A program made the position numbers and the translations under genes. From positions 268 through 64,267 of the forward strand of contig CAVTJT010000014.1 in assembly GCA_963735095.1 (NCBI GenBank): 64,000 bases of DNA. The letters are read 5' to 3'. The DNA is from an uncultured beta proteobacterium (GTDB lineage: Bacteria; Pseudomonadota; Gammaproteobacteria; Burkholderiales; Burkholderiaceae_C). Every line of letters begins with the position of its first letter. The stretch's first letter is position 1. Below, one piece after another: positions 1 through 59,888 of this stretch. Under the pieces are notes generated by a model that saw only the letters and a program-made list of their open reading frames with translations, was not told the DNA's origin and did no database searches.

Positions 1-671
1 AGGCCCAAATGGCCGGATTTACGGTCGTTGATTGCGCCACCGTCGTGGCGACCCACCTTTCACACTTGATGCAAGTGCATGCAGGCCGATTGCTCGGCCG
101 CGTCGAAACCCAATCGCTCGTCGAACACGTGACCAAGCTCGCGCCCAAACTGATCGAAGACGTGGTGCCCAAGATGGTGGGCATCGCCACCGTGCAGAAG
201 GTGTTGCAGCTGCTGCTCGAAGAGGGCGTGCACATCCGCGACATGCGCTCGATCACCGAGTGCCTGGCCGAACATGCCGCCACCGTGACCGACCCCGGCG
301 AACTGGCGCGCCGCATCCGCGTGCACCTGGCGCCGGCGATCGTGCACCAGATCTACGGCCCGGTGCGCGAGCTCGAAGTGATCGCGCTCGAACCCGACCT
401 GGAACGCCTGGTGACGCAGGCGCTGACGTCGCCGCACGGCGTGGCGCTCGACCCCGGCGTGGCCGACACGCTGTCGCGCGAGGCGGCCAACAGCGCCAAG
501 TACCAGGAAGACATGGGCCACCCGGCCTGCCTGCTGGTGCCCGATGCGATCCGCGCCGCGATGGCGCGCCTGCTCAAACGCTCGGCACCGCGCATGCGGG
601 TGCTGGGCCACAGCGAAATCCCTGAAACCCACTCGATCCGCATCGGTGCGGTCATCGGAGGTGCTGCATGA
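1..671 (+). CDS. flhA: Flagellar export apparatus protein FlhA, C-terminal cytoplasmic domain (5' end outside window)
   Basis: ORF 9..671 (VVPKMVGIATVQKVLQLLLEEGVHIRDMRSI...) resembles the conserved FlhA C-terminal domain. The frame is open to the window edge, and flhF/flhG/fliA follow. Confidence 0.9.
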   Translation, partial: AQMAGFTVVDCATVVATHLSHLMQVHAGRLLGRVETQSLVEHVTKLAPKLIEDVVPKMVGIATVQKVLQLLLEEGVHIRDMRSITECLAEHAATVTDPGELARRIRVHLAPAIVHQIYGPVRELEVIALEPDLERLVTQALTSPHGVALDPGVADTLSREAANSAKYQEDMGHPACLLVPDAIRAAMARLLKRSAPRMRVLGHSEIPETHSIRIGAVIGGAA

Positions 672-740
672 ACCCCCACGCTCACATTCGTTCGCTGCCC
701 CCCGAGGGGGCGCGCGCCTCCCTTGAGGCGGCTCGGCAGG
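668..740 (+). repeat. Palindromic intergenic element, copy A (short, 3' half diverged)
   Basis: Sequence is ATGAACCCCCACGCTC...GCTGCCCCCCGAGGGGGCG followed by the small stem CGCCTC/GAGGCG. Its ATGA overlaps the flhA TGA stop. It shares the core with copies at 10514, 13319, 37787, 40832 and 59376. Confidence 0.6.
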
Positions 741-746
741 AGGCGC

Positions 747-56222: not shown

Positions 56223-57755
56223 ATGCACGACATCATCGAACAGCTCGAGAACAAGCGCGACGCCGCGCGCCTCGGCGGCGGACGCAAGCGCATCGACGCG
56301 CAGCACGCCAAGGGCAAGCTCACGGCGCGCGAGCGCCTCGACCTGCTGCTCGACGAGGGCACGTTCGAAGAGTGGGACATGTTCGTCGAACACCGCTGCG
56401 CCGATTTCGGCATGGCTGAGCAAAAGGTGCCGGGCGACGGCGTGGTCACCGGCTACGGCATGATCAACGGCCGCCTGGTGTTCGTGTTCAGCCAGGATTT
56501 CACCGTGTTCGGCGGCGCGCTGTCCGAAGCGCACGCCGAGAAGATCTGCAAGGTGATGGACCAGGCGATGAAGGTCGGCGCGCCGGTGATCGGCCTCAAC
56601 GATTCGGGCGGCGCGCGCATCCAGGAAGGCGTGGCGTCGCTCGGCGGCTATGCCGAGGTGTTCCAGCGCAACGTGATGGCCTCGGGCGTGATCCCGCAGA
56701 TCAGCCTGATCATGGGGCCGTGCGCCGGCGGCGCCGTCTATTCGCCGGCGATGACCGACTTCATCTTCATGGTGCGCGACAGCTCCTACATGTTCGTCAC
56801 CGGCCCCGAGGTGGTGAAGACGGTCACCCACGAGGAGGTCACCGCCGAGGAACTCGGCGGCGCCGGCACGCACACCACACAAAGCGGCGTGGCCGACCTG
56901 GCGTTCGACAACGACGTCGAGGCGCTGCTGATGCTCAGGCGCTTTTTCAACTACCTGCCGCTGAACAACCGCGACGGCGTGCCGCTGCGTCCGAGCGGCG
57001 ACCCGCCCGAGCGGCTCGACCATTCGCTGGACACGCTGGTGCCCGACAGCCCGAACAAGGCCTACGACATGAAGGAGATGATCCTGAAGGTCGTGGACGA
57101 CGGCGACTTCTTCGAGCTGCAGGCCGACTATGCGAAGAACATCGTCGTCGGCTTCGGCCGCATGGCGGGGCAGAGCGTGGGCATCGTCGCCAACAACCCG
57201 CAGGTGCTGGCCGGCTGCCTCGACATCAAGAGCAGCACCAAGGCGGCGCGCTTCGTGCGCTTCTGCGATGCGTTCAACATCCCGGTGATCACCTTCGTCG
57301 ACGTGCCGGGCTTCATGCCGGGCACGAGCCAGGAGTACGGCGGCATCATCAAGCACGGCGCCAAGCTGCTCTACGCGTACGCCGAGTGCACGGTGCCCAA
57401 GGTCACGGTGATCACGCGCAAGGCGTATGGCGGCGCCTACGACGTGATGAGCTCCAAGCACCTGCGCGGCGACGTGAACTTCGCGTGGCCCAACGCCGAG
57501 ATCGCGGTGATGGGCGCCAAGGGTGCGGTCGAGATCATCTTCCGCGAGGACAAGGGTGACCCGGCCAAGCTCGCCGCGCGCGAGGCGGAGTACAAGGCGC
57601 GCTTCGCCAACCCGTTCGTCGCCGGCGCGCGCGGCTACATCGACGACGTGATCCAGCCGCATGAAACGCGGCGGCGCATCTGCCGCTCGCTGGCGATGCT
57701 GAAGGACAAGAAGCTGGAGAACCCGTGGCGCAAGCACGGCAACATCCCGTTGTGA
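56223..57755 (+). CDS. pccB: Propionyl-CoA carboxylase beta (carboxyltransferase) subunit
   Basis: [22 protein letters not shown]...[25 protein letters not shown]...[13 protein letters not shown]...[20 protein letters not shown]. Confidence 0.92.
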
Positions 57756-57763
57756 GTGCACGC

Positions 57764-59888
57764 ATGTTCACGAAGATCCTGATCGCCAACCGCGGCGAGA
57801 TTGCCTGCCGGGTCATCAAGACCGCGAAGAAGATGGGCATCGCCACGGTCGCGGTGTATTCCGAGGCCGACCGCGACGCGATGCACGTGGATCTGGCCGA
57901 TGAAGCGATCCTGATCGGTCCGGCGCCGTCGCGCGAGAGTTACCTGGTGGCCGACAAGATCATCGACGCCGCCAAGAAGACGGGCGCGCAGGCCATTCAC
58001 CCCGGCTACGGTTTCCTCAGCGAGAACGAAGACTTCGCGCGCCGCGTCGAGGAGCAGGGCCTGGTGTTCATCGGCCCCAAGCACCACAGCATCGCGGCGA
58101 TGGGCGACAAGATCGCGTCCAAGAAGCTGGCGCAGCAGGCCAAGGTCAACACCATCCCGGGCTACAACGACGTGATCGAGTCGCCCGAAGCGGCGGTGAA
58201 GATCGCCAGGGACATCGGCTATCCGGTGATGATCAAGGCCAGCGCGGGCGGCGGCGGCAAGGGCCTGCGCGTGGCGCACAACGACGCCGAGGCGTTCGAC
58301 GGCTTCAGCTCCTGCCGCAACGAGGCGAAGGCGAGCTTCGGCGACGACCGCGTGTTCATCGAGAAGTTCGTCGAGAGCCCGCGCCACATCGAGATCCAGG
58401 TGATGGGTGACGCGCACGGCAACGTCATCTACCTCAACGAGCGCGAGTGCTCGATCCAGCGCCGCCACCAGAAGGTGATCGAGGAGGCGCCGTCGCCGTT
58501 CATCAGCGAGGCCACGCGCAAGGCGATGGGCGAGCAGGCGGTCGCGCTGGCCAAGGCGGTGAACTACCAAAGCGCCGGCACCGTGGAGTTCGTGGTCGGC
58601 AAGGACCAGAGCTTCTACTTTCTCGAGATGAACACGCGGCTGCAGGTCGAGCACCCGGTCACCGAGTGCATCACCGGGCTCGACCTCGTCGAGTTGATGA
58701 TCCGCGTCGCGGCGGGCGAGAAACTGCCGCTGAAGCAAGCCGACGTGCAGCGCAACGGCTGGGCCATCGAGTGCCGAATCAACGCCGAGGATCCGCAGCG
58801 CAACTTCCTGCCCTCGACCGGCCGGCTGTCGCGTTACCTGCCGCCGCGCACCACGATGCAGGCGGCAGCGGCCATGCCCAAGGAGGGCGGCGTGCGGGTG
58901 GACACCGGGGTCTACGAAGGCGGCGAGATCCCGATGTACTACGACTCGATGATCGCCAAGCTGATCGTGCACGGCAGCGACCGCGCCCAGGCGATCGCGC
59001 GCATGCGCGAAGCGCTCAACGGCTTCGTGATCCGCGGCATCTCCAGCAACATCGCATTCCAGTCGGCGCTGCTGGCGCACCCGAAGTTCGCGGCCGGCGA
59101 CTTCAACACCGGCTTCATCGCCGAGCACTTCGCGCATGGCTTTCGCATGTCCGACGTGCCGCACAGCGACCCGCTGTTCCTGGTGGCGATGGCGGCGTTC
59201 GTGCGGCGCAAGGCGCGCGAGCGCTCGGCCGGCATCAGCGGCCAGCTCGCGGGTCACGGCGTGAAGAACCGCCCGACCTGGTGGTGGTGGTGATCAAGCC
59301 CGACGGTGCACACGAGCACCACGCGGTGCGCGTCGAAGACTTCGATCCGGTCGCAGCCAAGGCGGACGTGGTGATCGAGGAATCCGCCCCCGTCGCTCGG
59401 CAAGCCGAGCCGTCCCCCAAGGGGGAACTCCGGCCTTGGGGCGGCCCGGCGGCCGGCGCCATTTCGCGATCCAGAGCCCGACGCAGCTTGGCGACATCCT
59501 GGTCAATGGCACCTGCAACGGCAAGCCATTCACCGCGCAGATCGAACGCGGCAGCGCCAAGCACCCGTTGGGCATCCGCGTCACCCACAACGGTCTGCAG
59601 ATCGAAGCGTTGGTGCTGTTGCCGCGCGCGGCGGAGCTGCTGAAGCTGATGCCGCACAAGGCAGCGCCCGACCTCAGCAAGTTCCTGCTGTCGCCGATGC
59701 CGGGTTTGCTGGTCGACGTGGCGGTGCAGCCGGGCCAGAAGGTGATGGCCGGAGAGCGGCTCGCGGTGATCGAAGCGATGAAGATGGAGAACATCCTCAC
59801 GGCCACGCAAGACGGCGAGGTGCGCGAGGTGCTGGCCAAACGCGGCGAGAGCCTGACGGTCGACCAACCGATCCTGGCATTCGTCTGA
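57764..59888 (+). pseudogene. pccA: Propionyl-CoA carboxylase alpha (biotin carboxylase + biotinyl carrier) subunit; frame changes near 59265 and again within or after an inserted repeat at 59376..59460
   Basis: The BC domain [25 protein letters not shown]...[14 protein letters not shown] is in ORF 57725..59293. The linker [27 protein letters not shown]... is in the frame of ORF 58447... The biotinyl domain with EAMKMEN is in ORF 59436..59888. So three frames are used. Confidence 0.9.
59376..59460 (+). repeat. Palindromic element, copy H, located inside the pccA reading frame
   Basis: GGAATCCGCCCCCGTCGCTCGGCAAGCCGAGCCGTCCCCCAAGGGGGAACTCCGGCCTTGGGGCGGCCCGGCGGCCGGCGCC aligns along its length with intergenic copies B, C, F and G. 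It keeps the CCCCC-AA-GGGGG hairpin and the CCGGCC/GGCCGG stem around TTGGGGCGGCCCGGC. Confidence 0.65.

Follow-up and report, generated by a model that had tools for sequence, protein, structure and literature searches.

Beta-proteobacterial repeat elements in operons of an uncultured member of the Burkholderiales: hairpin architecture, insertion and predicted stop-to-start mini-ORFs

The stretch of 64,000 nt analysed here (the window) belongs to an uncultured beta proteobacterium (contig CAVTJT010000014.1, positions 268 to 64,267 of the forward strand). It contains eight palindromic elements, six of them inside operons, which raises the question of what family they represent, how they reached these junctions and what allows them to persist there. 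Judged by sequence, all eight belong to the Beta-proteobacterial repeat element (BRE), a selfish-looking, non-coding, non-autonomous dispersed repeat of 75–110 nt of the Burkholderiales; the relationship is one of membership, with no difference of kind. BRE was catalogued by Hot et al. (2011, BMC Genomics 12:207, PMC3110155) and is also listed by Delihas (2011, Genome Biol Evol 3:959). The preliminary description had foreseen that an already catalogued family would remove novelty; this is the case, and the observation itself stands.

Read from 5' to 3', BRE opens with a short purine-rich linker, which often includes an ATG. The CCCCCACGCT box comes next and is followed by three hairpins: a variable one, the C6-GA-G5 one and a long last one, for which two interchangeable versions exist. 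When reverse-complemented, the B. pertussis BRE (List S1, PMC3110155) reads AAAAAGA-CCCCCACGCT-GCGCCCGCTGTGCGGGC-TTGCTG-CCCCCCGAGGGGG-C-TTTTTTGCCTTGGGCGGCCCGCGGCCAAAAAA, and its parts follow the order seen in the window (box-hairpin-hairpin-hairpin). Published copies are 75–91 bp in length, form tandem arrays, are located within genes in some cases and occur in hosts including Polaromonas, Delftia and Acidovorax (PMC3110155). Comparison of the BRE of Hot et al. (2011) with the window elements yielded matches in the CCCCCACGCT box, the C6-GA-G5 hairpin and the TTGGG(G)CGGCCCG apex, and likewise in the head-to-tail arrays, the length of 75–91 bp, the hosts (Bordetella and Comamonadaceae) and the mostly intergenic, sometimes intragenic, site.

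A covariance model was trained on 83 copies from other genomes and then scanned over the window. It matches six of the eight copies at 45.7–79.5 bits, all on the plus strand; the next-best score in the whole window is 12.5 bits, and there is no match on the minus strand. The six copies are of the standard form (type A), while the other two (16192 and 26020) carry a different 3' hairpin module (type B) and reach only about 9 bits with the standard model. These two align with 16 copies elsewhere, which have a canonical 5' half and the alternative 3' hairpin GCGG(A/C)CCGGC-AAA-GCCGG(A/T)TCCGC. Single short motifs are not above chance in the window; the complete architecture is. All eight copies were found at the starts given in the preliminary description, by which they are named here (668, 10514, 13319, 16192, 26020, 37787, 40832 and 59376), on the plus strand and at or inside gene boundaries, and Pfam confirms the gene names around them. 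The features are as follows.

663–749, plus strand: BRE type A at the junction of flhA (stop 669–671) and flhF (ATG 748); 69.3 bits; Pfam FHIPEP on the upstream ORF
666–672, plus strand: left copy of the 7-bp duplication GCATGAA flanking copy 668
745–751, plus strand: right copy of the GCATGAA duplication, including the flhF start codon
10513–10598, plus strand: BRE type A between flgC (stop ends 10494) and flgD (ATG 10596); 72.2 bits; Pfam
13313–13404, plus strand: BRE type A with an extra middle hairpin GGCGC-TGC-GCGCC; 79.5 bits
16192–16300, plus strand: BRE type B with diverged 5' half at the flgI/flgJ junction; alignment with the 16 type B copies
26020–26122, plus strand: BRE type B; type B alignment; fold −75 kcal/mol, z −4.0; Pfam for the neighbours
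37759–37790, plus strand: tandem duplication of the 16 nt GCCTGTACTGATATGA (sdhC 3' end plus TATGA), read directly from the sequence
37786–37871, plus strand: BRE type A with degenerate C/G hairpin between sdhC (stop ends 37769) and sdhD (ATG 37875); 55 bits
40831–40914, plus strand: BRE type A between sdhB and sdhE (ATG 40927); 59.2 bits
59377–59462, plus strand: BRE within the BT domain of a propionyl-CoA carboxylase alpha-type gene (pccA); 45.7 bits

Copy 668 has its C5 box at 673, followed by the C6-GA-G5 hairpin, and the 3' arm of its last hairpin (AGGAGG) pairs with CCTCC and is located 5 nt upstream of the flhF ATG. The box of copy 13319 is abutted by the flgF stop codon (13320–13322), with the flgG start 116 nt downstream. 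Copy 16192, with an RNA fold of −57 kcal/mol (z −2.6), overlaps the flgI stop codon with its ATG (ATGA). The own TGA of copy 26020 (26021–26023) is the stop codon of a GGDEF gene, an MFS transporter gene starting about 190 nt later, and the ATGA of copy 40832 supplies the sdhB stop codon (40833–40835). In five copies (668, 13319, 16192, 26020 and 40832), and not in six as had been proposed, the upstream gene terminates at the TGA of the element. Directly 5' of copy 37787, the duplicated GCCTGTACTGATATGA was observed, which is missing from the empty sites of relatives. Across the pccA copy the reading frame shifts, with 77 nt separating the flanking codons; Pfam PCC_BT positions 64–126 resume directly after it, and the homologue in L084 is without the insert.

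Most members of the family possess, as a third hairpin, a variable one that separates the box from the C/G hairpin. In the 83 sequences, paired cells amount to 90.4% compared to 73.7% in shuffles, and the covariation score is 0.367, which is above the shuffled value of 0.106, is reached by 0 of 500 shuffles and falls to 0.06–0.13 with slid partners. The covariation of the stem reported earlier is real. In the last hairpin, both sides change in 12 of 13 pairs. Its 'conserved loop', previously taken to be unpaired, is itself a stem, in which position 3 (G/C) covaries with position 12 (C/G); the true loop is a GCGG tetraloop, accompanied by one bulged C and two conserved U.G pairs. The fold energy of the standard window copies is ordinary for DNA of 68% G+C (z −0.6 to −1.4), and support for the structure comes from covariation and not from folding energy. 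The BRE consensus features no stop codons on either strand.

In a pattern scan, BRE was found in at least 120 Burkholderiales genome contigs, nearly all from Comamonadaceae or Alcaligenaceae among the matches listed, and in 80 viral contigs. It is also present on chromids of Paraburkholderia, Burkholderia and Variovorax. Between co-directional genes, sense copies outnumber antisense ones by 53 to 20 among genomes outside the window and by 35 to 17 among viral contigs; the single orientation described before holds for the window, but not for the family. About 13% of the copies sit in frame within coding sequences, for instance inside dnaE2, ImuB/ImuA-like ORFs (named from gene order and sequence motifs, the Pfam match being for DnaE2 only) and a biotin carboxylase loop. 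BRE amplifies as head-to-tail arrays, with a period divisible by 3 in 15 of the 22 arrays (p = 9e-4). The earlier reading as a dispersed family of hairpin repeats is supported, but that as a REP/MITE-like family is not: BRE copies lack inverted pairs and a GTAG head, no MITE terminal inverted repeats were seen, and no transposase, RAYT-like or other recurrent or candidate mobilising gene was found near 120 loci.

Orthologous junctions of relatives are without BRE. The sdhC|sdhD junction is empty in seven related contigs (spacer of 8–19 nt), the sdhB|sdhE junction is empty in L128 and L130 and filled in Paraburkholderia (L212) and L118, and the flhA|flhF junction is empty in L213 (FlhA 96% identical; ..gcagcGTGAatgtc..) and L214 (..gcagcATGAACGTC..). 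In the window, the filled flhA|flhF site reads GCATGAA[72 nt]GCATGAAcgtc, showing that at least one copy (668) arrived with a 7-bp target duplication. This is the only clean target duplication found, the shared flank at sdhB|sdhE being TGA alone. The direct repeats common to both flanks are longer than those of shuffled flank pairs (mean 3.85 vs 3.50, sd 0.09). We infer that BRE is or was mobile via a trans-acting factor; where genes are tightly packed, it would land preferentially in their overlapping stop and start codons (ATGA, GTGA, TGATG).

A stop codon ends 0–10 nt upstream of the C5 box in 55 of the 65 sense arrays with an upstream gene on the same strand, in agreement with the preference for gene 3' ends suggested earlier. 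Intercistronic copies feature a mini-ORF of 25–48 codons, which bridges the stop codon of the upstream gene and the start codon of the downstream gene. By a frame-blind rule, 17 of the 22 tight sense copies that could be scored keep their linker ATG in phase with the terminal stop (permutation mean 7.4, p = 1.5e-4); copies belonging to one subfamily have start and stop in common by descent and are not fully independent. Gene starts were taken from a purpose-made simple gene caller, which may absorb in-frame fusions and inflate the in-phase fraction; when four possible fusions are added, 17 of 26 copies are in phase (p = 8e-4; p = 0.008 against a null of one half). An independent set yielded 23 of 24 mini-ORFs in phase, with one third expected (p = 2e-10). 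The length of the BRE body modulo 3 is uniform among the 22 scored copies, and each of the three phase components takes on different residues, yet their sum is zero far more often than under permutation. Read on the gene strand, antisense copies follow the same design (13 coupled and 5 in-frame fusions among 21). Shine-Dalgarno-like or stop-bearing 3' arms are enriched at tight junctions (15 of 27 vs 13 of 72, p = 4e-4).

Only three of the six intra-operon copies in the window have a well-placed mini-ORF: 10514 (10514–10594, 26 codons, MKQPPRSLRSLPPEGARQCLRAAGRH, TGA 1 nt upstream of the flgD ATG), 16192 (16192–16338, 48 codons, ending 2 nt upstream of the flgJ ATG at 16341) and 37787 (37787–37867, 26 codons, ending 7 nt upstream of the sdhD ATG). 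The mini-ORF of copy 668 is out of frame, and the ORF beginning at 40832 runs on for 24 nt inside sdhE in a different frame; as the assembly seemingly contains indel errors, these two failures may not be real. Copy 26020 has no mini-ORF.

The best explanation for the results as a whole, in which we place somewhat better than even confidence, is that BRE, which is or was mobile in trans, is kept in operons where the mini-ORF couples translation to the downstream gene. The element would be co-transcribed with its operon. The predicted mini-ORF would begin at or beside the upstream stop codon, and its reading would pass through the hairpins and unfold them. Its stop, on or 1–7 nt upstream of the downstream start codon, would then permit re-initiation (translational coupling); in some copies a Shine-Dalgarno-like GGAGG or the stop codon is located in the 3' arm of the last hairpin. 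BRE would persist in an operon only if ribosomes still reach the downstream gene, and intragenic copies would survive if in frame. Maintenance of the hairpins themselves probably serves either the propagation of BRE or the stability of the RNA. Translation of the mini-ORF is predicted from the phase statistics, and the sense bias of about 3:1 is not accounted for by such coupling.

That bias would be in line with an RNA-level operon element, the hairpins of which block 3' exonucleases on the upstream mRNA or attenuate read-through and tune cistron expression, as shown for some REP and ERIC copies. The strong compensatory change also fits, as do the two U.G pairs of the last hairpin, which pair on the box strand only (148 G.U vs 1 A.C), and a stable RNA of about 70–80 nt (BprJ1) overlapping a B. 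pertussis BRE. However, BprJ1 is on the complement of the box strand and its oligonucleotide probe could cross-hybridise with other copies, while G.U in the variable stem (23) is barely above A.C (14). A quarter to a third of the intercistronic copies are antisense and further copies are intragenic, no hairpin is followed by a U-run, the terminator scan around copy 13319 was empty, and the reading-frame phase is not predicted. We regard this explanation as possible but unlikely. Pure selfish DNA without translation constraint, in which the mini-ORF is a by-product of a duplicated ATGA-type overlap and of master copies in phase by chance length, appears rather improbable. The GCATGAA duplication does equip copy 668 with an ATG on its left end and a TGA on its right end, ATGA...ATGA flanks many antisense copies, and one subfamily has 5' ATGAAAC and 3' CACTGAC at many unrelated loci. 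Copy 668, the clearest duplication, is nevertheless out of phase, so duplication alone does not yield phase; moreover, phase is kept although mini-ORF lengths vary between 25 and 40 codons, its components sum to zero beyond permutation, and array periods and intragenic copies also keep multiples of three.

Conservation of the last-hairpin apex (CTTGGG-GCGG-CCCGGCG) and the C5 box in sequence, and not in pairing alone, is typical of protein recognition, and both orientations occur. These points would suit a DNA-level site, with hairpins or cruciforms recognised by a tyrosine (HUH) transposase as in REP/RAYT or by a nucleoid or topoisomerase protein as in BIMEs, gene proximity being incidental. 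With no RAYT-like or other recurrent gene near the 120 loci, direct instead of inverted arrays, no GTAG-type head, and frame phase and stop-codon adjacency left unexplained, such a site is very improbable. A family of genuine small-protein genes, in which the peptide of 26–30 residues (such as M-x-PHAHIRSLPPEGA..AARREA) would carry the function, was already disfavoured and is scarcely credible: one subfamily encodes near-alike peptides at many loci, but this likeness results from the conserved nucleotides of the hairpins, each of the three frames is in use relative to the box (x phases 10/2/10) and antisense copies give unrelated peptides.

The REP/BIME and ERIC/IRU sequences of enterobacteria are G+C-rich extragenic palindromes of transcribed intergenic regions, some copies of which alter mRNA stability (reviewed in PMC3184786); BRE is similar as a G+C-rich palindrome in such regions. 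REPs are about 35 bp long, with a GTAG-type head and inverted pairs, and flank a RAYT gene, whereas head, inverted pairs and RAYT gene (120 loci) were not found for BRE. In its behaviour, BRE resembles by analogy the mycobacterial MIRUs and the Rickettsia RPEs. As summarised in PMC3184786, MIRUs (Supply et al. 1997) are 40–100 bp long, located between genes of one operon and transcribed in the polycistron; they occur as direct tandem copies, the number of which varies, filled sites are flanked by short direct repeats, and the ends of their small ORFs overlap neighbouring genes. So far as that summary goes, BRE is alike in intra-operon site, small ORFs, tandem copies and flanking repeats, but differs in being also antisense and intragenic and in its three covarying hairpins; sequence and phylum are unrelated. 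RPEs, in the account of Ogata et al. (2000) cited there, are palindromic repeats persisting in frame within protein-coding genes, comparable to BRE inside dnaE2, the ImuB/ImuA-like ORFs, the biotin carboxylase loop and pccA. On the same account they differ in length (105–146 bp) and host (an alphaproteobacterial obligate parasite); their sequence is unrelated to that of BRE, which lies mostly between genes.

The accessible text of the published BRE papers (Hot et al. 2011; Delihas 2011) describes neither secondary structure, covariation and the type B 3' module nor stop-codon adjacency, target duplication and mini-ORFs. Beyond the published BRE, the present analysis adds that intercistronic copies almost always carry a stop-to-start mini-ORF, together with one clean empty and filled site. 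The demonstrable constraint on BRE acts on the reading frame, i.e. on translation, and not on mRNA ends.

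All eight repeat copies claimed by the preliminary description are present in the window, which has a G + C content of 68%:

Copy 668, + strand, between flhA and flhF
Copy 10514, + strand, between flgC and flgD
Copy 13319, + strand, upstream of flgG
Copy 16192, longer form, between flgI and flgJ
Copy 26020, longer form
Copy 37787, + strand, between sdhC and sdhD
Copy 40832, + strand, between sdhB and sdhE
Copy 59376, + strand, inside pccA

Common to the copies are a linker of the (A/T)TGA type, a C5 box (five of the eight read CCCCCACGCT), a C5-6/G5 hairpin and a last hairpin, the stem of which varies among the copies while complementarity is kept. 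Single short motifs were not more frequent than in shuffled sequence in this G + C-rich window and are useless alone; the whole architecture was therefore tested instead. With a covariance model trained solely on copies from other genomes, six window copies scored 45.7–79.5 bits, all on the + strand, while the next-best match in the window reached 12.5 bits and the - strand yielded none. Copies 16192 and 26020, already recognised as a longer variant, score poorly with this model and align with 16 copies of other genomes, featuring a canonical 5' half and a different 3' hairpin. The forms differing in the 3' hairpin were named type A (84–92 nt long in the window) and type B. A search of the 64-kb window against Rfam at gathering thresholds on both strands gave 0 matches, with no family for either type. 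A T-run directly 3' of a hairpin, as expected of an intrinsic terminator, is absent in all window copies, and a terminator scan of positions 13300–13560, around copy 13319 only, found none. Between this copy and flgG, a perfect 9-bp hairpin (AGCGCTGCC-TC-GGCAGCGCT) is followed by TTTT (13430–13462); with too short a loop and too few T residues, it was not accepted by the simple terminator scan. Two further repeats, unrelated to the element, sit in two adjacent minus-strand ORFs (33175–33630 and 33808–34350), namely a 139-nt direct repeat of 85% identity (33191–33329 and 33872–34010) and a 27-nt tandem repeat (GCGGCCGGTTGCTGGGCGGCCGGCTTC-like, 33447–33553).

The window elements are copies of the already catalogued Beta-proteobacterial repeat element (BRE); they do not form a new class, and their novelty of kind is nil. 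The BRE, of about 90 bp, was named by Hot et al. (2011, PMC3110155), who proposed no function for it and found it in Bordetella, Polaromonas, Delftia, Acidovorax and others, often in tandem, mostly intergenic and sometimes within genes. When the published sequences are read as reverse complement, their parts follow the order seen in the window copies; in B. pertussis 2208359–2208448 these are the box CCCCCACGCT, a middle hairpin, GCTGCCCCCCGAGGGGGC and GCCTTGGGCGGCCCG. With this match, the family counts as catalogued already. This outcome had been foreseen in the preliminary description, whose observation was correct and some of whose claims were over-generalised. The similarity to the published Bordetella repeat extends over the whole length. 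A unit of about 75–91 bp and head-to-tail arrays with few or no bases between units characterise the published BRE. Tandem arrays were found at 22 places in related loci, with periods of 78–102 nt; the window copies are all single. In the literature searched, the only later mention of the BRE was a listing in a review (Delihas 2011, PMC3184786), and a search for literature giving the box or apex sequence found nothing relevant.

The hosts are Betaproteobacteria (Alcaligenaceae, Comamonadaceae), in which copies are again mostly intergenic and in some cases within genes. Scanned against one genome per species, a pattern of box plus C/G hairpin matched at least 120 contigs, nearly all from these two families; Comamonadaceae genera among the matches listed are Polaromonas, Rhodoferax, Hydrogenophaga, Ramlibacter, Variovorax and Ottowia. 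The search pattern matches a MAG contig labelled Bordetella parapertussis, as it does the window copies. The closest relatives of the window proteins come from organisms named Leptothrix, Rubrivivax, Sphaerotilus and Methylibium. The BRE is also located on chromids and on 80 IMG/VR viral or prophage contigs (possible host contamination), often between tightly packed genes. Phages may be carriers of the BRE between genera. One viral-contig subfamily features near-identical predicted mini-ORFs (M-x-PHAHIRSLPPEGA..AARREA), i.e. short frames running from the upstream stop codon region through the hairpins to the downstream start codon.

Structure was analysed on an alignment of 83 type A copies, selected solely by box and C/G hairpin, so that the other two hairpins were free to vary. 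The covariation claimed for the last hairpin is borne out: 12 of its 13 pairs have changed on both sides, as have 4 of the 5 pairs in the middle hairpin. Overall, 90.4% of the cells are paired, compared to 73.7% in shuffles, and the covariation score is 0.367 compared to 0.106 for shuffled alignments and 0.06–0.13 with slid partners. What had been taken for a conserved loop is actually a stem with a GCGG tetraloop, switching from TTGGG/CCCGG to TTCGG/CCGGG, TTGAG/CTCGG and TAAGG/CCTGT. The apex further includes one bulged C and two conserved U.G pairs, which pair on the box strand only. In the variable stem, G.U pairs (23) barely exceed A.C pairs (14), so that this stem does not settle the folding strand. 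Folding energies are significant for type B copies; in type A they are unremarkable (z -0.6 to -1.4) and were rejected as structure evidence. An alternative to the local C6/G5 hairpin, in which the G5 run pairs with the 5' C5 box, is suggested by RNAalifold; the two are indistinguishable because both are invariant by how the copies were collected. The idea that the variable stem is a copy of the left flank, hinted at by three loci, was not supported overall (mean 3.54 vs 3.35; repeats of at least 5 nt 14 vs 10.3, p = 0.14).

Presence and absence at orthologous sites were observed, with junctions that are filled in the window being empty in relatives. The sdhC|sdhD spacer measures only 8–19 nt in relatives with 82–88% identical SdhD, and in two of those the sdhB|sdhE junction is empty as well. 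Stop and start codons overlap at two empty flhA|flhF sites, which read ..gcagcGTGAatgtc.. in a relative with 96% identical FlhA and ..gcagcATGAACGTC.. in another. In the window, where the site is filled, the sequence is GCATGAA[72 nt]GCATGAAcgtc, so that copy 668 is flanked by a direct duplication of 7 bp. At the sdhB|sdhE copy, TGA is the only shared flank; the duplication length is thus not constant. Across 99 copies, flank repeats show a weak excess over shuffled flank pairs (mean 3.85 vs 3.50, sd 0.09; 18 vs 11.8 repeats of at least 5 nt). We infer that the BRE is or was mobile.

The preliminary description had likened the family to REP and MITE elements. A MITE is recognised by terminal inverted repeats and a duplication of fixed length; one clear 7-bp duplication was found, and the ends (ATGG-CCCCCACGCT and ..GGCCCGGCGG-stem), compared by inspection, are not inverted repeats. 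Assignment to the REP/REPIN-RAYT type was rejected, as the arrays are direct, the GTAG head is absent and no transposase-like family recurs near the loci. The latter was determined by clustering 793 neighbouring proteins from 120 loci among the matches listed, in which only ABC permeases, short-chain dehydrogenases, Bug receptors and LysR regulators recurred. With no telling neighbour family at these loci, nothing points to a mobilising enzyme. The sdhB|sdhE junction is also filled in the Paraburkholderia largidicola chromid AP028202.1 (403–489 of the extracted locus) and in a further locus (L118, 3733–3811), both with the unusual GGGAGCGG apex of window copy 40832. In the chromid, annotators made the BRE the first 28 residues of SdhE, an N-terminal extension. 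The recurring copy either goes back to an old insertion since lost from some lineages, or marks a recurrent target. Directly 5' of copy 37787, 16 nt (GCCTGTACTGATATGA, the sdhC end plus TATGA) are present in tandem duplicate (37759–37790). This duplication is absent at seven empty sites of relatives and, being one-sided, is not a normal target duplication.

The gene names assigned earlier to the window were confirmed by Pfam. With genes called by a simple program that relies on codon usage, 115 copies or arrays were classified, from other genomes together with the window. Between co-directional genes, 56 are in sense and 20 in antisense orientation (53 and 20 without the window, p = 1.4e-4); 16 lie between convergent or divergent genes and 18 inside long ORFs. 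The single orientation described for the window therefore becomes a bias of about 3:1 outside it and is not fixed. The association with stop codons held up strongly: among the 65 cases where the upstream gene is on the same strand, 55 have its stop ending 0–10 nt 5' of the box. In antisense copies, 4–9 nt separate the box from the downstream gene's start codon.

In many copies, judged by eye, an ATG lies at or just past the upstream stop, and a terminal stop overlaps (ATGA, GTGA) or precedes (TGAnATG) the next start. A frame-blind rule was applied, pairing the ATG closest to the box with whichever stop triplet lay closest to the called start of the downstream gene. Among 27 tight sense copies, 22 were scorable and 17 of these were in phase, compared to an expected one third (permutation mean 7.4, sd 2.2, p = 1.5e-4); the element body length modulo 3 is uniform (8/7/7) and the mini-ORFs of this set comprise 25–40 codons. 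Allowing for in-frame fusions possibly absorbed by the gene caller, the count is 17 of 26 (p = 8e-4). An independent set from viral contigs yielded 23 of 24 in phase (p = 2e-10), with the first in-frame stop at +1, -2, -4 or -5 relative to the start codon. Antisense copies, read on the gene strand, comprise 13 coupled cases and 5 in-frame fusions (18 of 21). Of 22 arrays, 15 have a tandem period divisible by three (p = 9e-4). Every one of the three possible frames with respect to the box is in use; hence, the peptide itself is not the conserved thing. An array with a period of 87 nt (29 codons) and the unit junction TGAATGG (L112, about 1876–2049) would, if in phase, be a chain of abutting mini-cistrons, each from ATG to TGA, the frame having been read by eye.

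Within the window, mini-ORFs are well placed in copies 10514, 16192 and 37787, that of copy 40832 overshoots by 24 nt and the frame of copy 668 is out of phase. Because indel errors are likely, little can be concluded from the window by itself, and the statistics rest on other genomes. Single-base indel errors in the assembly are probable in flhF and pccA. The former (747–2282) is split into two ORFs (747–1349 and 1410–2282), and FlhA is fragmented in two related long contigs too. The BT domain of pccA contains copy 59376, which is absent from a homologue. The frame at this copy was dropped as evidence because two frame changes within 170 nt (region 59270–59470), with flanking codons 77 nt apart, look like an assembly error. 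Near-identical metagenome contigs (L001–L003) differ from window positions 40860–40880 solely in how long the C/G runs of the BRE hairpin are. Such runs are hot spots for assembly indels, and gene callers extend or split genes at BRE copies.

Several copies inside ORFs are real in-frame insertions. An imuA-imuB-dnaE2-type mutagenesis cassette of an Ottowia sp. MAG (L026, 609–7503) contains at least nine BRE copies. Four in-frame antisense copies of 84 nt (28 codons) inside the ImuB-like ORF give rise to the repeat PPGRPKAASxPLGGSxxxEAxERGG, two further in-frame antisense copies lie inside the ImuA-like ORF and one sense copy is found within the C-terminus of the Pfam-confirmed DnaE2. The names ImuA and ImuB derive from gene order beside dnaE2 and from sequence motifs; Pfam matched neither ORF. 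An acyl-CoA carboxylase likewise contains an in-frame antisense copy, flanked by GTVEFIV and FYFMEMNTR in a loop of its biotin carboxylase ATP-grasp domain, at the orthologous site in two genomes (L025, about 6716–6807; L036, about 2533–2624).

As a tentative proposal, which we consider possible and slightly short of an even bet, the BRE would be a portable mini-cistron: between genes and in either orientation, its frame of 25–48 codons would be translated, with handover at the overlapping stop and start. In the mechanism that we consider most likely, landing sites would be the stop/start overlaps of packed genes, along with which the element would be transcribed, and it would persist where a predicted mini-ORF, if translated, keeps the downstream gene coupled. 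Persistence of this kind, with the downstream gene coupled through a small ORF, has been described for MIRUs, to which we liken the BRE in functional class and not as a homologue; its mini-ORFs, predicted from sequence, likewise abut or overlap the flanking stop and start codons. In a stronger form of the mini-cistron reading, the last hairpin would pair CCUCC with the GGAGG ahead of the next start, making downstream translation strictly dependent on upstream translation. Among tight junction copies, 15 of 27 have GGAG-type or stop triplets in the 3' arm of this hairpin, compared to 13 of 72 others (p = 4e-4), and in copy 668 an AGGAGG located 5 nt upstream of the flhF ATG is paired with CCTCC. 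A role of the BRE as RNA stabiliser is possible. In B. pertussis, a BRE is overlapped by an RNA of about 70–80 nt, which derives from the strand opposite to the box and was detected with a probe that may cross-hybridise.

In the literature searched, no structure, insertion signature or functional constraint has been proposed for the BRE since 2011. Added here are a three-hairpin covariation model, two exchangeable 3' modules and a target duplication with matching empty sites. The most useful addition is a replicated, statistically strong sign, in two data sets and both orientations, that intergenic copies are constrained as translated mini-ORFs. If the mini-cistron reading is true, thousands of such frames would be translated in Burkholderiales and their phages, and the BRE could enter the tightest operon junctions and coding sequences at little cost. 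Through the sign of constraint on its intergenic copies, the BRE becomes a Gram-negative counterpart of MIRU and RPE, and it offers a simple experimental system for asking how selfish repeats can settle in operon junctions while leaving translational coupling intact.
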